From positions 304,914 to 368,913 of the forward strand of contig CAVRPV010000006.1 of NCBI GenBank assembly GCA_963723235.1: a DNA stretch of 64,000 nucleotides, written 5' to 3'. The position numbers and the translations under genes were made by a program. The DNA comes from an uncultured delta proteobacterium (lineage in GTDB: Bacteria > Desulfobacterota > WTBG01 > CAIYCZ01 > CAIRTM01). Under the pieces are notes generated by a model that made no database searches, was not told where the DNA came from, and saw nothing but the letters and a program-made list of their open reading frames with translations. Shown here piece by piece: positions 2,780 to 26,561 of the stretch (position 1 is the first letter of the stretch; each line of letters opens with the position of its first letter).

Positions 2780-5586
2780 CTAGAGATATTTTTTTAAAAA
2801 CTGTCCGGTTATTGAACGCTCCTGCTGCACAATCTGCTCGGGTGTTCCTGCGGCAACGAGATACCCTCCGGCATCACCGCCCTCAGGGCCAAGATCAATG
2901 ACATAATCAGCAGTTTTAATCACATCCATATTATGCTCGATGACAAGCACGCTGCTGCCGCGCTCCACCAGGCTGTTCAAAACCGTGAGCAGCCGGGCGA
3001 CATCGGCAAAGTGCAGGCCGGTTGTCGGTTCATCCAGAATGTAGAGCGTATGGCCCCGGCCCTTCTGGGCCAGTTCGCGTGAGAGTTTAATACGCTGCGC
3101 CTCACCGCCCGAAAGCGTTGTCGCCGGCTGCCCCAGGGCAATATAGCCAAGCCCTACATCGCACAGTACATGAAGCCTGGTGTGCAGCGCAGGGATATTT
3201 TCAAAAAAAACAAGCGCTTCGCTCACGGTCAGGTCCAGCACATCAGCGATATTTTTACCGCGATAGCGCACCTCAAGCGTTTCCCGGTTATAGCGTCGTC
3301 CCTGGCACACATCGCAGGTCACATACATGTCGGGCAGAAAGTGCATTTCAATTTTCAGCGCCCCGTCACCCTGACATGCCTCGCAGCGGCCGCCCTTGAC
3401 GTTGAAGCTGAAACGGCCGGGTTTATATCCGCGCAGTTTTGCCTCGGGGAGCTGCGTAAAAATATCGCGGATATGATTGAAAATGCCGGTGAACGTCGCC
3501 GGATTTGAGCGGGGGGTGCGTCCGATGGGGGATTGATCAACATGAATAATTTTGTCAACATATGCCGCGCCGGTAATGCGGGCACCCGGTGTGTGACTGC
3601 CTACAGCACCCTTTCGCCTGAGCGCCTCAAGCAACGTGTCAAACACCAGCGTGCTCTTGCCGGAGCCTGATACGCCGGTAACACAGGCAAGGACTCCCAG
3701 CGGGATGCTGAGGCTGATATTTTTTAAATTGTTTTTTGAAGCACCTTCCACATGCAACGCGCGCTCAGATGTACGACGAACCCCGGGCAGCGGGATTTTT
3801 TCCAGACCGGCCAGATACCTGCCGGTAAGCGAGGCGGGGTTGGCTTCCACTTCCTGCGGCGTACCAACAGCCACTACCCGGCCGCCGGCAACCCCTGCTC
3901 CGGGTCCCAGGTCAACAATATAATCGGCCGCCCGGATGCTTTCTTCATCATGTTCAACCACGAGAACGCTGTTGCCGATATCGCGCAATTGCTGCAGAAT
4001 ATGCAGCAGGCGCGCGGAGTCCCGGGCGTGCAGGCCCACGCTGGGCTCATCCAGCACATACACAACCCCGGTCAGCCGTGTGCCAAGCTGCGCGGCAAGG
4101 CTGATGCGGTGAGACTCTCCGCCCGAGAGCGTTCCGGCCGCGCGATTCAGGGTCAGATATCCCAAGCCAAGGTATTCAAGAAATCCCAGGCGCTGCCTGA
4201 TTTCACGCACAAGCGGATCGGCAATCTTCTGCCGCGCCGGCGCAAACGAAATGCCCCCCAGAAATGAGGCGGCCTCACTGACACTCAATGCGCACACATC
4301 GGCAATTGATGTGCCGCCAACTCGAATCCAGAGGCTCTCTTTCTTCAGACGGCCCCCGCTGCAGGATGGACATGGCTGCTGGTTCATGTAGCGGCCGATA
4401 TCGTCTCGCACCTGTTCTGATTCGGTTTCATGATAGCGTTTGTTCAGCGACGCCAGAATGCCCTGAAACGGTTTCTCGGACCGGTACAGGCGTTTTTCAT
4501 CACGGAATTCAAAGGCAACCGGCTCGCCACCGCTGCCGTTCAGCAGCATTGAACGAATACGCTGCGGAAGTTTATCAAACGGCGTATCAAGCGAAAATTT
4601 GTAATGATCGGCCAGCCCCCGGCACAGGTAGCGCACGTAAAAAGAATCGGGGTTCGACCAGGGCGCAATGGCCCCCTGATTAACCGAGAGGCTTCCGTCC
4701 GGAATGATGAGGGCCGGATCAAGCTCGGAGCAGGTTCCCAGACCCGAGCATGTTTCGCACGCGCCGTAGGGGCTGTTAAAAGAAAATGAGCGCGGACTCA
4801 GTTCAGGATAGCTGACCGCACATTCGGGACAGGCCAGTTTTTCACTGAAGATCATTTCCCGCCCTTCAACCGGGGCCACGATTACTAGCCCGTCGCCCAA
4901 CGATACGGCCGTCTGCAGCGAGTCGGCCAAACGCTGGGCAATAGTATCTTTCACGACAAGCCGGTCGACCATCACCTCGATGGTGTGGGCCTGTTTTTTT
5001 CAAGGCTGATGTCATCGCCCAGGTCAACCTGTGCTCCGTTTATCCTGGCCCGGATAAAACCGTCCTTGCGCAACTGGCGCAGCTCTTTTTTAAATTCGCC
5101 TTTGCGGCCGCGCACGATCGGGGCCAGCACGACTATTTTCGCGCCCTGCTCAAGACGCATGACGTGATCGACCATTTCCTGAATGGTCTGGGAGCTGATC
5201 TCGCGGCCGCATTTCCAGCAGAAAGGAATGCCCGTGCGAGCGAACAGCACCCTGAGATAATCATATATCTCCGTGGTGGTGGCAACGGTTGAGCGCGGAT
5301 TGCGGGCAAGTGTTTTCTGTTCAATCGCAATCGCAGGCGAGAGCCCCTCAAGCACATCGACATCGGGCTTCTGCATCTGATCCAGGAATTGGCGGGCATA
5401 GGCTGAGAGCGACTCAACGTAGCGCCGCTGGCCCTCGGCATAAATCGTGTCAAAGGCCAGCGACGATTTGCCGGAACCGCTTGTGCCCGTAATAATGACC
5501 AGACGGTTTTTGGGGATCACAACCGAAATATTTTTCAGGTTGTGAACCCGGGCGCCCTGTATGATGATTTCACGTGATTCGGACAT
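2780..5586 (-). CDS. uvrA: Excinuclease ABC subunit A, one frameshift near 4975-5000
   Basis: ORFs 4972..5664 and 2780..4975 join: [27 protein letters not shown], zinc fingers, second Walker [21 protein letters not shown]; start ATG 5586. Confidence 0.95.
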
Positions 5587-5826
5587 ACATTGATTATAAT
5601 ACAGACACAGGTGATTGTGCAGGTATTTTTCAATACGATGCGGGCCGGCGAAGCTTGCCTGCAAACGGCCCGAACCGGTCCCGGCCAGGAAAGAATTCTG
5701 GAAAAGACATTACTTTTATGCACAAATAGACTGTTGCCATATAATATATTCAATGTTATATAGTTACAGCATTCGGGTGGGTTACATACCGATAGGTTTA
5801 AACACATAACGCACAGGGGTCACTGA

Positions 5827-7032
5827 ATGAAAAAGGTCTATATCAGGTCAAACGGCTGTATTGACAATCTGCTTGATGGCAAATCCTACAAACAATATTT
5901 TACGGAAAATGAGTGGGAAATAGTTCAGGATCCGGCCGAGGCTGACCTGATTCTGGCAAACACCTGTGCCTTTGACAAACAGCATGAAGACACATCCGTT
6001 TCCGATATTGAAGAATTGAAAAAATTTAAAAATGCCCAGCTCGTCGTTACCGGATGTCTGCCCAAGATCAATCAGGAACGGCTGAACCAGGTATTTGACG
6101 GCATATCCTTCGGCCCCAAGGAACGCGAAAAAATTAAAGATATCATCGGCTCTGATCAGGAAATAAAATGGAAGGATCAGCATACCATCGCCGATGACGA
6201 TATCACAGAACTGCCGCACCGCAAGATGGTTCATCAGGTGGCAAAGCTGAGAAGCAAGGCCGGACGCTTCGGGAAATATATCCTGCCCAACTTTGAAATT
6301 GGTGAGGTAACCGGAGACCAGGACGCTTTCTTCCTCGTGCTCGGCGAAGGCTGCCTGGCCAACTGTTCCTACTGCGCTATTAAAAAAGCGAAGGGCGGCC
6401 TTGAAAGCAAGCCCCTGAAAGAAATTATAGAAGACTTCAAACAGGGTCTGGCGCAGGGCTACAAACGCTTCATTCTCACCGCTGACGATACCGGTGCCTA
6501 CGGTCAGGATCTCAAAACCGACCTGCCGACCCTGATCGAAAAACTGCTTGAAGTCGAAGGGGACTATCGACTCAACATTTACCACCTTGAACCAAACTGG
6601 CTGATCAAATATTTCGACTATTTCCTCAAGGTGTTTGATACCGACAAAATTGATGTCATCTTTGCACCAATGCAGTCCGGCAGCAATCGTATCCTGAAAG
6701 CCATGCGCCGCCCCTACACGGCTGAGGACTATATAGCCTGCATGAAGGCGCTGCGCGAAAAACTTCCCTCCCTCAAAATATGGAATCAGTTTATTGTCGG
6801 GTTTCCCGGTGAGACCGACGAGGATCATGCCGACAGCATGAAGGTCCTTGATCAGGTCAACTTCAATGTCGTACAGGCTTTTGAATATTCCGACCGACCC
6901 GGCACAGCCGCATCAATAATGGAAAATAAAACTCCGCCGGATGTAATGAAAAAACGTATAAAGCAGATCCGACGCAAGATACTGCTCAAGGTAAACCTGA
7001 AAAAGCTTAAACCTATCGGACGGGCCAGCTGA
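5827..7032 (+). CDS. MiaB/RimO/MtaB-like radical SAM methylthiotransferase-family protein lacking a TRAM domain
   Basis: N-terminal UPF0004 cysteines (NGC, NTCAF, TGCL), CxxxCxxC (CLANCSYC), QSGSNRILKAMRR, IVGFPGET, YSDRPGT; ends without TRAM. Confidence 0.85.
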   Translation: MKKVYIRSNGCIDNLLDGKSYKQYFTENEWEIVQDPAEADLILANTCAFDKQHEDTSVSDIEELKKFKNAQLVVTGCLPKINQERLNQVFDGISFGPKEREKIKDIIGSDQEIKWKDQHTIADDDITELPHRKMVHQVAKLRSKAGRFGKYILPNFEIGEVTGDQDAFFLVLGEGCLANCSYCAIKKAKGGLESKPLKEIIEDFKQGLAQGYKRFILTADDTGAYGQDLKTDLPTLIEKLLEVEGDYRLNIYHLEPNWLIKYFDYFLKVFDTDKIDVIFAPMQSGSNRILKAMRRPYTAEDYIACMKALREKLPSLKIWNQFIVGFPGETDEDHADSMKVLDQVNFNVVQAFEYSDRPGTAASIMENKTPPDVMKKRIKQIRRKILLKVNLKKLKPIGRAS

Positions 7033-15251: not shown

Positions 15252-16118
15252 CTACAAGCCTTGCACGATTCTCGCTGAAGTTGACCGGCGCTCTTTCAAC
15301 CCCTGCAAAAGCTCATCCGGTACATATAATGACCCCCGGCCAATGCCGATTTCAATACCGTTCACGCTGCTGCCGTGAAAATCACTGCCCCCGGTTTCAA
15401 CCAGATCAAATCTGCCCGCAAGGCTTTTATATAATTGCTGCTGTTGGGGTGAATGTTCAGGATAATACACCTCTATGCCCTGCAGGCCGCAGGATCGCAG
15501 TTCGGCTATCAAGTCCTGCAGCACCGCGCCGCTGTGCCGGCCGATAACAGCAGGGTGTGCCAGCACGGCCACACCTCCGGCATCTCGAATGCAAGCGATC
15601 GCCGCATCAGGCGCAAACCGGTATTTATCGACATAGGCCCGCGCCCCCTTTTTGAGATAGCGGTCAAAGGCCTCGCGCATTGAACGCACGTACCCCAATC
15701 GGACCATCACCTTGGCAAAATGCGGACGGCCCACCTGCCCGGTTTCAGCCTCCTGCTCGACCTGCTTCAGGGTAATGGCGACACCCTGTTCGCGCAGCCG
15801 ATCGATAATGCGCGGATTGCGCTCATTGCGCGCCTGCTGCAATACGGCAATACGCTCTTGAAAACAGGGGTCCTCATGGCGGATATAGTAGCCCAGCACA
15901 TGCAGTGTGCCAAGGTGATGCTCGACGCTGATCTCGATGCCGGGAACAACCTCAATGCCGCCATCGATCCCGGCAGCAAGGGCTTCGGCAACGCCCTCAA
16001 CCGTGTCATGATCGGTAATTGCAACCGCACTCAAACCGCGCGTGCAGGCATAGCGGACCATTTCAGCAGGGCTCAGCGTTCCGTCTGAAGCGTTGGTATG
16101 CACATGCAGATCTATCAT
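15252..16118 (-). CDS. PHP-domain phosphoesterase (TrpH/YciV-like)
   Basis: DLHVHTNASDG, AITDHD, GIEIS, GRPH, LAHP, GGSDFHG. Confidence 0.92.
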   Translation of the reverse strand: MIDLHVHTNASDGTLSPAEMVRYACTRGLSAVAITDHDTVEGVAEALAAGIDGGIEVVPGIEISVEHHLGTLHVLGYYIRHEDPCFQERIAVLQQARNERNPRIIDRLREQGVAITLKQVEQEAETGQVGRPHFAKVMVRLGYVRSMREAFDRYLKKGARAYVDKYRFAPDAAIACIRDAGGVAVLAHPAVIGRHSGAVLQDLIAELRSCGLQGIEVYYPEHSPQQQQLYKSLAGRFDLVETGGSDFHGSSVNGIEIGIGRGSLYVPDELLQGLKERRSTSARIVQGL

Positions 16119-17188
16119 GAGGTGCCATCGCCGCGTAAAACTGCGGCGTCCTGAGGCATGTGCTTGTTCAGACCCTGCACCGAATCCGATGGGGCAGTTC
16201 TCACGAAATCATAGTCAGCATCCGTATTGATGTTTTTAAACACATCAGCCGAAGCGGTACGCAGAACTTTAACCTGCAACGAGGGAAACAAATCAATAAT
16301 ACGATGTTCACCATGGGCAATCAGATCTTCAAGGGCCGAAAGACAGGTCCGACGATACAGGGCGCATAACGGCTCAAAATGTTTGTGTTTGAACATAACG
16401 ATATCATGCCCGGGAAGCGCCGCGACCAGGCTCTCAAAAAGCTCACTGTTTACCAATGGCATATCGCAGGATACCACCAGTACGTATTCAGTGTCACAAT
16501 GGGTTAATGCGGCATGAATTCCGGACAGAGGACCCCCGCCGGGCAAAATATCGCCGCGGCACGGATAGCCCAGATGGGCGTACTCATCCGGACTGTTGGT
16601 GATGATGGTAACCGCTCCGGTACAGCAGCGCGCCTCATCAATAACCTTTTCTATGAGCGTTTTGCCGTGCAGGGGCAACAGGGCCTTGTTGCGGCCCAGG
16701 CGGCTTGAGCGTCCGCCCGCCAGCACAGCCGCGGAAACAATCGGGAGCAGAATGCTGTTGCGTATCAGTTCGGCCATGGCCGCAGCATCCGGACACACCC
16801 GGCCAAACCCGGTAAAACGCCCGTCACTGATATCAATTACAGCAGGCCTACCGTCGCAGTGCGCTGTATCAACCAGCAGGATATGGCAGTCCGTAAAGAA
16901 TTTTTTTTCACAATGCTCCGTTTCCGCATTACGCGGAGCGGTCGCTATAGTACCGGCGCACAAATCAACATGTGCCGCAGCTCCGGCAGCGACGAGTGCA
17001 TCGTCATTATCCGCAGGTCGCTCGTCTCCGGACTGGCGCAGCACACCGACGCGCAGCCCGCTCTGTGTCAGAGAGCGTACCAGCCGGGCCAGCATATGCT
17101 GTTTCCCTTCACCATGCGGGCCGCTGCAATATATCGTAACAGGGAGAATGTCCATACCTAACGGATGCTCAAAGGAATCAGATGACAA
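16115..17188 (-). CDS. mobA: Molybdenum cofactor guanylyltransferase with degenerate MobB-like N-terminal domain
   Basis: VLAGGRSSRLGRNKALL, GGPLSGI, CDMP, EPLCALY, FKNINT; N-terminus SGPHGEGK...GLRVGVL resembles MobB. Confidence 0.85.
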   Translation of the reverse strand: MSSDSFEHPLGMDILPVTIYCSGPHGEGKQHMLARLVRSLTQSGLRVGVLRQSGDERPADNDDALVAAGAAAHVDLCAGTIATAPRNAETEHCEKKFFTDCHILLVDTAHCDGRPAVIDISDGRFTGFGRVCPDAAAMAELIRNSILLPIVSAAVLAGGRSSRLGRNKALLPLHGKTLIEKVIDEARCCTGAVTIITNSPDEYAHLGYPCRGDILPGGGPLSGIHAALTHCDTEYVLVVSCDMPLVNSELFESLVAALPGHDIVMFKHKHFEPLCALYRRTCLSALEDLIAHGEHRIIDLFPSLQVKVLRTASADVFKNINTDADYDFVRTAPSDSVQGLNKHMPQDAAVLRGDGTS

Positions 17189-19731: not shown

Positions 19732-20421
19732 TTAAAGGGCGTAGGTAATTTCATTCATGAGTTGCACAACCGGATAGTCGTCAAAGTAGTCGATAATATT
19801 CAAACAGGCGTAGGACTGTTCCAGCCTCACTACGCTATTCAAATCAAGCCCCAGGGCTTCGCACAGAATAACCCGGTTCAAACCGCCATGGGCAACCAGC
19901 AGGATAGTCCCACCGGCATATTCGCACAGCAGGTGCTCAAGGCGCGGCAGGGCCCGCGCGCGCACATCGCTAAAACTCTCGCCGCCCTTAATCCGGAATG
20001 AAGCAATATCGCGGGTGCGCGAGTTGAATTCCTCCTGAAACCGCTCCAGAATGTCGGCAAGCGTCAGTCCCTCCCAGTGTCCTATGTTAATTTCACGGAA
20101 TTCAGGACAGGCGACCGGCTCAAGTCCGCAAGCAGCTGAGAGCAGACGCGCTGATTCAACCGTTCGCGCCAAATCACTGCAATACACTGCGTTGAACGGC
20201 ACATCGTTCAAGCGGCGGGCAAGCGCGCTTATCTGCGCGCGCCCCTTATCACTTAACTCGACATCCCGATGACCGACATAGCGCCACTCATCAGAGGTCA
20301 CCAGCGCACCATGGCGCACCAGATACAGCCGCGTACGCGGCACATCCGCAGCATTGTGCTGAAAACTGGCGTGAACGGCCGGGATCGGGTCAGCCTGTCT
20401 ATGTCCTGAGTCAGATGCCAT
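19732..20421 (-). CDS. Histidine phosphatase (CobC/phosphoglycerate mutase family)
   Basis: LYLVRHG, SDLART, EINIGHWEG, GGES, VAHGG. Confidence 0.88.
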   Translation of the reverse strand: MASDSGHRQADPIPAVHASFQHNAADVPRTRLYLVRHGALVTSDEWRYVGHRDVELSDKGRAQISALARRLNDVPFNAVYCSDLARTVESARLLSAACGLEPVACPEFREINIGHWEGLTLADILERFQEEFNSRTRDIASFRIKGGESFSDVRARALPRLEHLLCEYAGGTILLVAHGGLNRVILCEALGLDLNSVVRLEQSYACLNIIDYFDDYPVVQLMNEITYAL

Positions 20422-20448
20422 GCCGCCACAAAGCGAAATACGTACTGT

Positions 20449-22626
20449 TTATGGATTATAAATATCGTGCAGCAGCCTGACCAGGGCGATATTATCGGAA
20501 TGCCCGGTCATATTTGCCGTAATCTTTGCCCGCAGGGGTCTGCCGAGCAGGTACAGGTCCCCTACCATATCCAGAATCTTATGCCGCACAAATTCATCCG
20601 GAAAGCGCAGATCCGTATTAACGATTTTCTCATCGTCAATCAAAATAAAATTATCAAGCCGACCTCCGCTTGCAAGCCCCTTTTCATTGAGCGCCTCAAT
20701 ATCCTTCAAAAATCCGAAGGTGCGCGCCGGGGCGATCTCCCGTTTAAAATCATCGGCTTCCGACATAACGAATGTGTATTCCTGATGACCGACCGGCCGT
20801 GGATAGTCCAAGGTGTAATGAATGGAAAACGTGTCGGCAGGTTCAACGGTCAAGAACTTCTGCTTGCGATTGGACTCGCCCACGGTATGGCGCCGGTCAA
20901 CGATGATTTCATCCAGGGGTTCTTCCTGCTCTTCGATCCCGGCATCCTCAATCATCTGGCAGAAATCAACAGCGGACCCGTCCATGATGGGGACTTCATT
21001 ATTGATCTTGATCATCAGGTTGGTGATCCGGTAGGCATGCAGAACCGCCAGAAAATGCTCTATGGTGCGGGCCGCAGCCCCGTTATGCTGCAGACTGGTG
21101 GCATAATCGGTTGAAACAACATAGTCGATATTTGCAGGGATAACCTCGCCGCTTGAAATATTGCCGAACAGTATACCACTGCCCGGCGGCAGCGGCGTCA
21201 GGATCAAACCGGTCTTGTCTCCGGAATGCAAGCCGCGCCCGCTCAGCACCATGCTGCGCTTGAGGGTGCGCTGCATGCGCTGTGCCGCCTGGTGTTCACA
21301 CGATAAAATAATATTGTACTCACTGACATACTTTTTAAGCAGCTTTTTTGTGATATTGATTTTCTCGGCTGTGCGCTTGATATCACGATCATTGCGGCGC
21401 AGGTGATACAGCAGATAATTCTTGCGCCAGGAGTTCTCGGCTTCCTGCATGCTGGCGTAGCGCTCATGGTAGCGCGAAACGTTGTACTGCATATCATCGC
21501 GCACTGAGAGCGGAATATCATGCGATGAAACCATTTGGGTGTGAACCGACACCACAATCTTTTCAACAAGGTTTTTGAGCTCCTTGACATTGCCGGGCCA
21601 ATCGTAATTCATGAGCATCTCAAGCGCGTCATCATCAAAGCTTTTCTCGCGCAGCCCGTAATCCCGGCAGTAAAAACCCATAAAATGCTGCAGAATCAGC
21701 GGGATATCACCCCGCCGACTGCGAAGCGACGGCAGAGTGATGCGCTCTGAAAAACAGGCTGCAAAGTCCGCCGAGAGTTTCCCGGCCTCAAGCGCTGCGT
21801 CAATATCAAGCAGCAATGAAGCCGCAACGCGAAGCTGTGAATCAGATGAACGCTTGTGCAGAAAAGCCGCAATGCGATCCTGCAGCCCGATTTCAAGCGC
21901 ATCAACCGATGCCAGATATACAACCGCGCTGCCGGAATTCGTGAACAACCCGGCCTTGCCTGAACCAACGGACCGATCGCCGAAAAGCTCAAGGGCCGCT
22001 TCCGCGGAATCGTACAAGGGACAGTTGAGACGGTAAAAAGCCGCGGGACGATCGCTTTTTTTCCCGATCCGCAGCATCCGGGCAACGATTTCCTTACCGG
22101 TGCCGGCCTCACCGCATAGCAATACGTGCGCTTTGCCGCCGGCAATTTTTTCTGTGTGCCTGCGAATATCAATAATTTCCGACGTCTCGCCAATCAGCCT
22201 TACACGCTCCTGCGACCCGTCATGTGTATCTTCAACAGCGGCAGCCTGAGCCACGGCCTGCCATTTTTCATTAATACGCTTGAGGGTATTCAAAACCACG
22301 TCAAGCGAAAAAGGCTTCTCAAGAAAATCAAAAGCACCGTGTTTGACGGCCTGCACGGCAGTGTTGACCGTACCGTGACCGGTCATCATGACCACCTCGA
22401 TCGCGGAATCGAAATCCTTGATGCACTTGAGCGTTTCCATGCCGTCCATTCCCGGCAGCCAGATGTCCAGGAACACGATATCAACGGGCTGGGACTTAAT
22501 GATACGCATGGCCTGACTGCCGTCGGGAGCGTTCAGCAGGCTGTAGCCCTCGTCCTCAAGGCTGCCGCTGAGTGAATCAATAATAGCCTGTTCATCGTCT
22601 ACCAAAAGAATGACCGGTGTTTTCAT
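20449..22626 (-). CDS. lpxC: NtrX-like response regulator (REC, degenerate AAA+, HTH) fused to LpxC (about 20449-21276)
   Basis: One ORF: LLVDDE/FLDIWLPG/TGHG/EKP receiver, GEAGTGKE, WPGNVKEL, then QRTLK..SGRGLHSG, TIEH, EVPIMDGSA, APARTFGF, RHKILDMVGDL, GH. Confidence 0.9.
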   Translation of the reverse strand: MKTPVILLVDDEQAIIDSLSGSLEDEGYSLLNAPDGSQAMRIIKSQPVDIVFLDIWLPGMDGMETLKCIKDFDSAIEVVMMTGHGTVNTAVQAVKHGAFDFLEKPFSLDVVLNTLKRINEKWQAVAQAAAVEDTHDGSQERVRLIGETSEIIDIRRHTEKIAGGKAHVLLCGEAGTGKEIVARMLRIGKKSDRPAAFYRLNCPLYDSAEAALELFGDRSVGSGKAGLFTNSGSAVVYLASVDALEIGLQDRIAAFLHKRSSDSQLRVAASLLLDIDAALEAGKLSADFAACFSERITLPSLRSRRGDIPLILQHFMGFYCRDYGLREKSFDDDALEMLMNYDWPGNVKELKNLVEKIVVSVHTQMVSSHDIPLSVRDDMQYNVSRYHERYASMQEAENSWRKNYLLYHLRRNDRDIKRTAEKINITKKLLKKYVSEYNIILSCEHQAAQRMQRTLKRSMVLSGRGLHSGDKTGLILTPLPPGSGILFGNISSGEVIPANIDYVVSTDYATSLQHNGAAARTIEHFLAVLHAYRITNLMIKINNEVPIMDGSAVDFCQMIEDAGIEEQEEPLDEIIVDRRHTVGESNRKQKFLTVEPADTFSIHYTLDYPRPVGHQEYTFVMSEADDFKREIAPARTFGFLKDIEALNEKGLASGGRLDNFILIDDEKIVNTDLRFPDEFVRHKILDMVGDLYLLGRPLRAKITANMTGHSDNIALVRLLHDIYNP

Positions 22627-22640
22627 GCTGCACGTACCTT

Positions 22641-24881
22641 TCAAATGCTTATCTGCCGGCTTACCGGCAATTCGATCACAAAACAGGTTCCGCGGGGCTG
22701 ATTGTCGCGAACCCTGATGTAGCCGCCGTGATCGGCGATAATCGTGGTGACAATCGCCAGGCCCAGCCCGGTGCTGTCTTTTTTCGTTGAAAAATAGGGG
22801 TCAAATATTTTAGGTTTCAGTTCGGGCGGGACACCGCTGCCGTTATCGGCGACCTCTACTGTTACCATATTCAGTTTTGGCTTGTATTCGGTGCGTATCG
22901 CGATCAGGCCGTCATTTTCCAACGAGCCGACCGCGTTGTCAAGGAGATTAATCAGAACCCTTTTGATCTGACCACGGTCAAGACTGAGCCGCCCCACAGT
23001 GCTGCCCGGCTCGAAAACAAAACTGATATCCTTATGGGCTTCACGGTACAGGGTCAGGGTATCCTCGATTATTTCATGAATATCATTGGCCCTGGGTTGT
23101 GTGGCCGGCATTTTGGCAAAACTGGAAAATTCATTTACAAGCTTCTTGAGTTCATCAACCTGTACGACAATCGTACCCAGACAATCCGTGAAAACGCTGC
23201 GGTCCTGGTTGATCTGAGGTGAAAATTTCCGGAGAACCCGCTGGGCGTTCAGCTTAATGGGCGTAAGCGGGTTTTTTATCTCATGCGCAATGCGCCGGGC
23301 GACCTCCCGCCAGGCATAGGCCCGCTGAGACTGCTGAATCTGGGTCAGATCCTCACCAACCAGCACCAGCCCCATGTAGTTCCCTTCATTATCAAACAAC
23401 CTGTTTGAACGAATATACACGTAGGCCGTTCGCTGAGCGAATGTCAACGTTACCTGGCGTTCAACCGCAACGAGGTTTAACCGCGTAACCTCATCAATCA
23501 GCTCCTTCAATGGCCGGAACTCATCAGGAGCGAACACCTCGCCGTAGGGGCGCCTGAGCACTGATTCCAGCGGGATGCCGAACATGGTCTGGGCCGAAAG
23601 ATTAAAATTGATAATAACACCCTCGCGGTCAATGGAGACAACCACGGCCGCAACATTCTCAAGCAGGCTCTCCATATATATCCGGCGGTGATCAAGCTCA
23701 GTGACCATGTCACGCAAATGGCGTGTAGTCTGCTCGACCTTCTCATGGCTGACACGCAAATCGCAGGTCATCTTGTTGAAGGAATCAACCAGAACACCGA
23801 TTTCATCATCAGCGGCAGGCTCAATCTGGAAATCAAGGTTGCCCTGGGCAATCTGCTCAGTAGCATTGGCCAGCGAAGTGATCGGCACCGTTATGACTTT
23901 TGAAAGGTGAAAGCCGAACCATGTGGCCGAGAATATAATCAGCAGGGTCACAACCGAAAGCAGGAGCACATACAGATACTTGATCGGATTTTTATAGAAC
24001 TTCAGCTGCTTGTAGTCCTGGAACGCCTTGGCAATGTTGTCCATCTTTGACACCAGACTGCGGGGCACGTAATAATTAACAACAATCACGCCCACAACAT
24101 CCTTGCGGCCCCAGCTTGAAAACACCGGAACAACCCCCCTGATAATATCGCTTTCGCCGGCCGGCTGGATGCGGATACTCTCCTTGCCGTCAAGGGCCTG
24201 CTGCACCAGAGATGAGTCGGCGCTGATAAAACTGGAATCGGGCACCTGCGGGTTCATGGCCTTCACCAGTTCTTCCTTCTGGGAAGAATAGACCTCGACC
24301 ACGCCAAGGTTGTATTCGGCCTGTTTCTCATTGATAAAATCACGCAATATTTCCAGATTCATCTGGGACAGCAGCTTGTTGTCGGTTATATTCCGGCTCA
24401 GCTGCTTGGCATAATAGAGCGCGTTGGAGGAAGCATTATTATAGTAGGCCTCGGTAACGCTGAAAGCCTCCTCAAGGGTGGTTTCAACCTTGAAGCTGAA
24501 CCAGTTCTCAATCGTATTGCTGATAAAACCTATTGAAACCCAGAACAGCAGCAGAGTCGGCACCAGCGACAGCCCGACAAAGGCGATCACCAGCTTGGAT
24601 CTCAGCTTTGACCCCAGGATGCCGCGCCGCCGTTCAAAAACCAGCTTGACCACGTTGCGAACGACCAGGTAAACAAGCAGCAATAGGAGAATAGCGTTCA
24701 CGTTGATCAGCAGGAACACCAGTATATTTTGCGGCAGCAGGGCCTCGCCGCGCTTGCCCGTCACGTAGAGCAGGAGCGAAGTCAGCGCGACAACCAGCAG
24801 GATAACAAAAATGATAATCAGGCGCTCGCGCCGGCGGCGTTTTTTTCCCTGCACCTGTGTACTGGCGGCACTCTTGTTCAT
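22641..24881 (-). CDS. ntrY: NtrY-like PAS/HAMP sensor histidine kinase
   Basis: N-terminal TMs, GSKLRSKLV, HAMP, PAS, AWREVARRIAHEIKNPLTPI, N/G1/F/G2 boxes. Confidence 0.9.
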   Translation of the reverse strand: MNKSAASTQVQGKKRRRRERLIIIFVILLVVALTSLLLYVTGKRGEALLPQNILVFLLINVNAILLLLLVYLVVRNVVKLVFERRRGILGSKLRSKLVIAFVGLSLVPTLLLFWVSIGFISNTIENWFSFKVETTLEEAFSVTEAYYNNASSNALYYAKQLSRNITDNKLLSQMNLEILRDFINEKQAEYNLGVVEVYSSQKEELVKAMNPQVPDSSFISADSSLVQQALDGKESIRIQPAGESDIIRGVVPVFSSWGRKDVVGVIVVNYYVPRSLVSKMDNIAKAFQDYKQLKFYKNPIKYLYVLLLSVVTLLIIFSATWFGFHLSKVITVPITSLANATEQIAQGNLDFQIEPAADDEIGVLVDSFNKMTCDLRVSHEKVEQTTRHLRDMVTELDHRRIYMESLLENVAAVVVSIDREGVIINFNLSAQTMFGIPLESVLRRPYGEVFAPDEFRPLKELIDEVTRLNLVAVERQVTLTFAQRTAYVYIRSNRLFDNEGNYMGLVLVGEDLTQIQQSQRAYAWREVARRIAHEIKNPLTPIKLNAQRVLRKFSPQINQDRSVFTDCLGTIVVQVDELKKLVNEFSSFAKMPATQPRANDIHEIIEDTLTLYREAHKDISFVFEPGSTVGRLSLDRGQIKRVLINLLDNAVGSLENDGLIAIRTEYKPKLNMVTVEVADNGSGVPPELKPKIFDPYFSTKKDSTGLGLAIVTTIIADHGGYIRVRDNQPRGTCFVIELPVSRQISI

Positions 24882-25085
24882 TGGCGTTCATCCGATCCTG
24901 GTACCGGGTCAGGCGGCCGTTCATCAGCCGCGGCATGGTTGCAGATATTGACCCGATTATGAATCAACATTGTACTATGACTGGAGCCAGTATTCAAACG
25001 CAAATTCACATCTTTCTTGACAGTGCTTCCTTTTTTGTGTAGGTTTTCCCTTCATACCACAACCGCATCCCGGAAGGAACCCGCC

Positions 25086-26561
<1,476 letters not shown>

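Follow-up and report, generated by a model that had tools for sequence, protein, structure and literature searches.

A single gene in a 64,000-nucleotide stretch of DNA from an uncultured delta proteobacterium (positions 304,914 to 368,913 of contig CAVRPV010000006.1; below, the window) encodes both a response regulator and LpxC. LpxC carries out the committed, dosage-sensitive step of lipid A synthesis. The fused gene is genuine and is not an artefact, and all of its parts, including the degenerate ones, are under purifying selection. We consider it probable that the encoded protein is an ancient, selectively maintained response regulator of an NtrY-type kinase that has been joined to the cell's sole LpxC, and that phosphorylation acts on LpxC itself. 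We infer both the phosphotransfer from NtrY and the effect of phosphorylation on LpxC from comparisons with related genes and genomes.

The segment from 20449 to 24881 contains two open reading frames (ORFs), both on the minus strand (Table 1). A previous reading of this DNA, made without any database searches (the sequence-only reading), described one uninterrupted ORF downstream of ntrY that runs from a receiver through an AAA+ domain and a helix-turn-helix (HTH) segment to LpxC. We found the same: the frame is open throughout, Pfam finds the domains, and the gene upstream (22641-24881) is of the NtrY type (NtrY_N scores 34.7 bits; the cut-off is 23.2). Similarly, wherever a fused locus is long enough to show that side, ntrY is the gene immediately upstream of the fusion. 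As listed, the fused ORF spans 20449-22644 and encodes 731 amino acids from a TTG start at 22644. The ATG at 22626, which is six codons inside that frame and 14 bases past the stop codon of ntrY, is more likely to be the start, because AAGG lies about 10 nucleotides upstream of it and because the orthologues begin at the same MKTPVILLVDDE. The protein would then have 725 amino acids.

Table 1. Features of the ntrY gene and the fused gene, with coordinates in the window and the residue ranges of the Pfam matches.
Feature	Coordinates	Strand	Details
NtrY-type sensor histidine kinase gene, 746 amino acids	22641..24881	-	presumed cognate kinase; Pfam NtrY_N, HAMP, PAS, HisKA, HATPase_c
Fused gene: REC + pseudo-AAA+ + lid + HTH + LpxC, 725 amino acids (start likely)	20449..22626	-	stop codon at 20449-20451
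Receiver (REC)	22285..22611	-	PF00072 Response_reg, residues 12-120, 103.8 bits
Codon for phospho-acceptor Asp54	22465-22467	-	within receiver
Degenerate sigma54-type AAA+ core	21727..22197	-	PF00158 Sigma54_activat (residues 150-266) and PF14532 matches
P-loop, kept	22093-22113	-	within AAA+ core
AAA+ lid (AAA_lid_14, PF25601)	21490..21723	-	residues 308-385, 77.6 bits
Fis-type HTH-like segment	21295..21456	-	hhalign to HTH of unfused regulators
Short junction linker	21274..21294	-	contains ATG 21274-21276 (Met451)
LpxC domain (UDP-3-O-acyl-GlcNAc deacetylase)	20470..21273	-	PF03331, residues 458-725; zinc and catalytic motifs intact

Could an error of assembly or of frame have joined two genes? 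The window's guaB gene has several frameshifts, a sign that this assembly is not free of indel errors. However, the same uninterrupted architecture recurs in dozens of assemblies that are independent of one another. We compared 41 related genomes, of which 31 encode the fused type (17 of 17 in family f1, including the window's own genome; 4 of 4 in f2; 9 of 10 in f4; and 1 of 1 in f6). Another nine encode a stand-alone LpxC, in stop-to-stop frames of 291-336 amino acids (8 of 8 in f3 and 1 of 1 in f5), and the remaining genome, which is 87% complete, has no match to LpxC. One LpxC was found per genome: none of the fused genomes among these 41 relatives has a second LpxC locus. In the window's own genome (83.46% complete, 20 contigs), the fused gene is the one match to LpxC, and LpxA and LpxB are encoded on another contig. 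More broadly, all of the 120 best protein clusters (47-96% identity) have the receiver, Sigma54_activat, the lid, and LpxC. Public sources label these clusters as LpxC or as NtrX, which makes the fusion easy to overlook. The named relatives are Thermodesulfobacteriota or "Deltaproteobacteria" metagenome-assembled genomes (MAGs), Desulfomonile, and Syntrophobacter; among the cluster members of the 10 proteins that we checked, there were MAG records and no cultured carrier. Finally, contigs from three DNA sequencing runs cross 21270-21330, which includes the boundary between the regulator and LpxC, with no stop or indel (run X1, record 1, 20300-22087; X2, record 19, 21103-21298; and X3, record 26, 21131-21380). 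One of these three runs may be the source sample. For practical purposes, the relatives, the clusters, and the crossing contigs refute an artefact, and we give it negligible weight.

Alternatively, LpxC might be made separately from an internal start, in which case the long frame would overstate the fusion. The window and its genus have an ATG (21274-21276) immediately ahead of the LpxC domain, and a Met or Val codon seven codons into LpxC is another candidate. Also, a sigma54 -24/-12-like site with two mismatches (21272-21287, minus strand) lies on the HTH-LpxC junction and overlaps Met451. However, a start codon at positions -3 to -1 relative to QRTLK, at the beginning of LpxC, is present in just 8 of 20 orthologues, and 2 of these have a Shine-Dalgarno-like motif. 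The Met or Val at the seventh codon is present in all 20, but the motif is present in 1 of the 20 (L011, where it precedes the adjacent GTG at +8). Judging from these alignments, an internal start for LpxC is not conserved. The sigma54-like site is the only one in 6 kb of the window, about 0.6 would be expected by chance (an arithmetic estimate), and none of 19 fused loci has such a site at the junction. We rejected it as an lpxC promoter because of this chance frequency and the lack of conservation. Furthermore, within the genus, all of the domains upstream of LpxC have a ratio of nonsynonymous to synonymous substitution rates (dN/dS) below 0.2. We think that a separately made LpxC is very improbable. 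The junction between the HTH and LpxC has low identity among the 20 orthologues (0.23), yet its length varies by no more than one residue.

To see how far the fusion extends, we searched 201 sampled genomes of the phylum with a profile of fused-type LpxC domains (E ≤ 1e-95). Fused-type LpxC was found in 49 genomes from 19 families, always in an open frame of at least 401 amino acids. By frame length, 16 of the 49 have the long form and 33 have a short receiver-LpxC form; we read the ORFs of ten of these genomes directly and classified the remainder by frame length alone. The short forms have 409-460 amino acids, with a receiver, a variable linker, and LpxC, and are again found behind ntrY. Their linkers are long and of low complexity. 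When a short form was used as the query, all of the 120 best clusters had receiver and LpxC domains only. The long form of the Desulfomonile type apparently lacks the HTH. In three genomes, LpxC lies in a frame of 1000-1400 amino acids; these are stop-free artefacts of high guanine-plus-cytosine content, and the real genes are short forms. One genome (G228, family f35) has both a short fused LpxC and a stand-alone type (C52:6907-7713 and C232:4646-5455). This assembly has 5.9 Mb in 350 contigs and 5% contamination, so the second LpxC is either a true copy or a contaminant.

The fusion has a single origin. We built a maximum-likelihood tree of 48 LpxC domains, for which the bootstrap had not completely converged. 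It groups all 28 fused domains into a single clade (100/100), whose stem has a length of about 1.5 substitutions per site. The short forms require 3-4 changes on this tree, and one pair of them is nested within the long forms (98/87 and 98/90). The simplest history would be that the genes fused once and that the AAA+-HTH module was then lost repeatedly.

The relatives with a stand-alone LpxC suggest what preceded the fusion. In those genomes, lpxC, a gene with DUF4390, ntrY, and the regulator gene lie in the same direction. The regulators from f3 are canonical enhancer-binding proteins, with GAFTGA, LFLDE, and the arginine fingers, and 7 of 8 stand-alone lpxC loci have a sigma54 -24/-12-like element 23-77 nucleotides before lpxC. 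The exception is the f5 locus. The f5 regulator (L025, from genome G023, 5398-6765) is stand-alone and ntrY-linked, with a half-decayed AAA+ domain (GAFAGA, LLLDK, and loss of the second arginine finger), and this locus may represent an intermediate state. Other ntrY-linked regulators have GSFTGA, GAFEGA, GAFEKA, GALAAA, or no such motif. The DUF4390 gene, which encodes a signal-peptide-like N-terminus, lies between lpxC and ntrY in L023-L028, L041, and L069. Of the genomes that we searched for DUF4390, all 5 unfused ones have it and none of the 6 fused ones (including the window's own) does, although these genomes are kin rather than independent samples; its loss seems to go with the fusion.

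This arrangement resembles a circuit that was described in Desulfovibrio. According to the accessible text of PMC3333781, lpxC is the single target of the D. vulgaris regulator DVU2934 (whose kinase is DVU2931), and its authors point out that, in S. fumaroxidans, lpxC immediately precedes the orthologous operon. Similarly, the accessible part of PMC4045070 describes a kinase from D. alaskensis (Dde_3000) that acts on a sigma54 activator (Dde_3003) whose only target is lpxC, with a sigma54 site. As in our unfused relatives, which we compared to Desulfovibrio by synteny and by the promoter picture only, there is a kinase, a regulator of the NtrC family, and a sigma54 promoter at lpxC. In Desulfovibrio the control is transcriptional and the proteins are separate, whereas the fused family has one polypeptide and lacks GAFTGA, the Walker B glutamate, the arginine fingers, and the promoter: the window has just the one chance-level site, while 7 of 8 unfused relatives have the element. 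We propose that the fused gene goes back to a dedicated circuit, with an NtrY-linked sigma54 activator that turned on the transcription of lpxC. After the fusion, the sigma54 contact loop, the catalytic residues of the ATPase, the sigma54 promoter of lpxC, and the DUF4390 gene would have been lost. Many lineages also appear to have shed the entire AAA+-HTH module, which left receiver-linker-LpxC.

To see which functions the regulator half retains, we aligned 20 long-form proteins and then 82. The receiver has the phospho-accepting aspartate that the sequence-only reading pointed out: D10, D11, D54, and K104 are invariant in both alignments, and T82 and F101 are invariant in the 20 proteins and at least 90% conserved in the 82. 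The short forms have the same receiver motifs. As every switch residue is kept, the receiver is predicted to be a competent phospho-switch.

The AAA+ domain has decayed in the way that the sequence-only reading described, with Walker A kept and with GAFTGA and Walker B missing. The match to Sigma54_activat (PF00158) is partial and covers profile positions 1-121 of 168. Walker A (GxxGxGK) is present in all 82 long forms, and so are the sensor II arginine and the aspartate of the lid motif LRxRxxDI. GAFTGA is present in none of them; the window's protein has LFGDRSVG, followed by a deletion. The Walker B glutamate is also absent from all 82 (it is Ser in 43 and Ala in 32), while the Walker B aspartate is present in 32; the window's protein has YLASV(D) at this site. 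The arginine fingers are lost, and the second finger is Cys in 54 of the 82 proteins. With the P-loop and sensor II kept, and GAFTGA, the Walker B glutamate, and the fingers gone, the module should bind nucleotide without hydrolyzing it and without contacting sigma54.

The third part of the regulator half is the HTH-like segment, which the sequence-only reading also recognized. Its homology to the C-terminal HTH of unfused ntrY-linked regulators is clear from hhalign (probability 97.6%, E = 3.6e-12). With Pfam, the segment alone has sub-threshold matches to assorted HTH families and no match to HTH_8. The degenerate parts are not decaying freely: within the genus, dN/dS is 0.09-0.17 for the AAA+ domain and 0.03-0.14 for the HTH, and the pair with the least saturation has values of 0.05 (receiver), 0.09 (AAA+), 0.03 (HTH), and 0.06 (LpxC).

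Is the regulator "NtrX-like," as the sequence-only reading put it? NtrX lacks GAFTGA, and the fused protein fits the layout of NtrX: REC-AAA+-HTH without GAFTGA, encoded after ntrY. The closest solved structure is NtrX (PDB 5m7n, E = 5.2e-89), and the best regulator model from NCBIfam is the NtrX equivalog NF051870. On the other hand, the score for that model is 246.8, as compared to a cut-off of 600, and the nearest unfused relatives are canonical enhancer-binding proteins with GAFTGA. The likeness holds, but as a best match rather than as membership.

These features of the regulator half bring up the main rival to our interpretation. The protein might be bifunctional but uncoupled: the N-terminal half would be a sigma54-independent, DNA-binding regulator in the style of NtrX (for instance, one that autoregulates the operon), LpxC would be a constitutively active passenger, and the fusion would ensure co-expression. 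The homology of the HTH to that of unfused regulators, its low dN/dS, and the match to the NtrX structure all fit this idea. So does the repression of lpxC transcription by NtrYX in two alphaproteobacteria, as reported in the accessible parts of PMC12444477 and PMC7240162. However, 33 of the 49 fused genomes have short forms, which have no HTH or AAA+ and keep an intact receiver on LpxC. Also, the LpxC domain changed rapidly on the stem that followed the fusion, and the length of the linker between the HTH and LpxC is fixed. We did not find a conserved operator upstream of ntrY, although the search was a weak test; there were just trivial palindromes of 6-9 nucleotides. Overall, we consider the uncoupled arrangement to be unlikely.

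Turning to the other half of the protein, LpxC seems to be fully equipped. The match to PF03331 has 286.2 bits (the cut-off is 27) and covers positions 1-266 of the 268 in the profile, and the score for the lpxC equivalog TIGR00325 is 262.7, which is above its cut-off of 187.25. As the sequence-only reading had it, the motifs are intact: TIEH, HKILD, and TGH are all present in the window's LpxC domain. When aligned with solved LpxC chains, TxEH, HKxLD..GD, GH, and RTFGF, which we take to be the zinc ligands and catalytic residues of LpxC, are invariant in the alignments of 20 and of 82 fused proteins (E523, H524, T636, F637, H682, K683, D686, D690, and H709 in the latter). The fused LpxC is therefore predicted to be a functional deacetylase, and no other LpxC homologue was found in this genome, where LpxA and LpxB are also encoded. 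At eight positions (460, 473, 505, 530, 540, 609, 613, and 662, in fused numbering), a residue that is fixed in at least 27 of the 28 fused domains differs from the common residue of 19 stand-alone LpxCs. Examples are Asp to Ser505, Glu to Lys540, and Val to Leu662. None of the eight is catalytic, and they are candidates for a new interface.

The fused LpxC has just a few residues beyond its final conserved helix, whereas proteobacterial LpxC continues into a C-terminal tail. This raises another possibility, which is that the receiver is a phosphorylation-dependent tag for stability or localization. Once phosphorylated, it would direct the enzyme either to a protease or to the membrane kinase, and it would replace the FtsH/LapB degron system of E. 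coli. Besides the missing tail, the long, low-complexity linkers of the short forms would suit such a tag, and the accessible text of PMC12444477 describes the control of E. coli LpxC by proteolysis. Against it, no protease adaptor or degron was identified; the data that we used do not separate a tag from allostery. A search for the LapB zinc-ribbon (PF18073) gave one match in the genome, but it also gave matches in 10 of 14 control genomes, including Gram-positives, so the search is unspecific. We think that a stability tag is less likely still than an uncoupled regulator.

Our preferred interpretation is that phosphorylation acts on the output of LpxC. NtrY, as a membrane kinase, would sense an envelope or redox cue and would phosphorylate Asp54 of the receiver. 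The phosphorylated receiver would alter the output of the attached LpxC, whether by changing how active the enzyme is, how it oligomerizes, or how stable it is. The signal in the long form would pass through a hydrolysis-dead, nucleotide-binding AAA+ domain and through the HTH, which is closely tethered to LpxC. The flux into lipid A would thereby be set post-translationally. The direct two-component control of LpxC that the sequence-only reading proposed has strong comparative support from the short forms and from the unfused relatives, and the specific effect of phosphorylation on activity, oligomeric state, or stability is a prediction. Because the P-loop, the lid, and the HTH are conserved in the long form, we suggest that it might be a scaffold with bound nucleotide, probably a dimer, to which LpxC is attached by a short tether of fixed length. 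The site of control seems to have shifted, from the promoter of lpxC to the protein itself, because the short forms keep the receiver and LpxC while the sigma54 apparatus (the loop, the ATPase chemistry, and the promoter) was discarded. A bolder version, which we find plausible but would not bet on, is that a regulator was fused to the product of its only target, that phosphorylation by NtrY directly gates the catalysis of the sole LpxC, that the pseudo-AAA+ domain adds an input from ATP status, and that about a quarter of the phylum works this way.

Several observations weigh against direct control of LpxC by phosphorylation or against the data behind it. The strong purifying selection on the conserved HTH means that the long form may still act mainly as a transcription factor. 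A model in the Atlas of a homologue with 59% identity (P0040) does not give a confident arrangement of the domains (predicted template modelling score, pTM, of 0.43); the taxa attached to that homologue, Nitrospinota and Acidobacteriota, are leads at most. The related genomes do not count as independent samples. Interruptions affect 4 of the relatives' 31 fused genes: an in-frame TAG in G002 and frame changes in G003, G011, and G040. In G011, the adjoining ntrY is frameshifted too, which suggests that an assembly error is likelier than decay. In an RNA sequencing run (X15), the matches were fragments within the LpxC part, with 90-95% likeness, and none of them crossed the junction. And the per-base accuracy of the window is imperfect, because guaB has several frameshifts.

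Some details about these genes may be useful. The TAG in G002, which is from the same genus (L004), is at about codon 98, within the receiver of that genome's only LpxC gene, and dN/dS is still low; the codon may reflect a sequencing error or a recent lesion, or it may be read through. The guaB gene (IMP dehydrogenase; 25017-26518, plus strand), which points away from ntrY, is spread across all three frames and changes frame at least five times, in some cases at runs of A. Either it is a decayed gene or the assembly has local indel errors. On the other side, 27 nucleotides past the fused gene, is a gene for a histidine phosphatase (19732-20421, minus strand). It resembles alpha-ribazole phosphatase, with a score of 152.6 bits that is just under the cut-off of 162.9. 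This gene follows the fusion in 11 of 11 loci from f1 and in 2 of 3 from f2, and not in f4. Further along (16115-17188, minus strand) is a gene for a MobA-like nucleotidyltransferase whose N-terminal stretch weakly resembles MobB; it may encode a fused protein for the synthesis of molybdopterin-guanine dinucleotide. A scan for sigma70 promoters and terminators was uninformative, with 7 promoter-like sites as compared to 5.3 ± 2.2 in shuffled sequences.

How does the fused protein compare to known systems? In alphaproteobacteria, NtrYX affects the expression of lpxC and the level of lipopolysaccharide, according to the accessible parts of PMC7240162 and PMC12444477. As in Brucella (the source of 5m7n), R. 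sphaeroides, and C. crescentus, the fused gene adjoins a kinase with NtrY_N and its regulator lacks GAFTGA. In alphaproteobacteria, however, the control of lpxC is transcriptional and indirect, within a large regulon, whereas here the regulator is fused to the enzyme. CheB (REC-methylesterase), PleD and WspR (REC-GGDEF), and RpfG (REC-HD-GYP) are alike in having a receiver N-terminal to an enzyme and an adjoining kinase gene, and the short receiver-linker-LpxC forms have exactly the layout of CheB, PleD, and RpfG. The receiver of CheB blocks the active site until it is phosphorylated. The fused LpxC differs from these proteins in that its output is the committed-step enzyme of a biosynthetic pathway, and the long form has a pseudo-AAA+ domain and an HTH in between. 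The other catalogued fusion of LpxC is LpxC-FabZ (NCBIfam NF009667), whose partner is a C-terminal pathway enzyme rather than a signalling module; on the fused protein, this model matches the LpxC part only (216.9, as compared to a cut-off of 465).

The amount or activity of LpxC sets the flux into lipid A, according to the accessible text of PMC12444477. Proteolysis via FtsH/LapB/YejM in E. coli and activation by MurA in P. aeruginosa act post-translationally on the same node. Unlike the E. coli enzyme, the fused LpxC lacks a degron-type C-terminal tail, and its input is predicted to be a two-component phospho-signal.

Response regulators with enzymatic outputs are already known, and so is two-component control of lpxC transcription. 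We did not find a published receiver-LpxC or NtrX-LpxC fusion in the full-text literature, which excludes supplements and subscription journals. The accessible part of a 2025 review of lipid A regulation (PMC12444477) covers proteolysis, binding by MurA, and indirect transcriptional effects; it contains no covalent signalling input and no occurrences of "fusion" or "fused."

The control of LpxC outside of the Enterobacteria is an open question, and this family bears on it. It gives independent "Rosetta stone" support for the connection between NtrYX and lpxC that was seen genetically in alphaproteobacteria and in Desulfovibrio. As a natural and widespread case of a regulator and an enzyme in one protein, it makes the link testable with a single polypeptide and its kinase. 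The genomes also form a graded series, in which separate genes are followed by a long fusion whose ATPase is decaying and then by a minimal receiver-enzyme, as if a transcriptional circuit were collapsing into an allosteric one. If our interpretation is correct, then roughly a quarter of the phylum would have a phospho-switch on the committed step of lipopolysaccharide synthesis.

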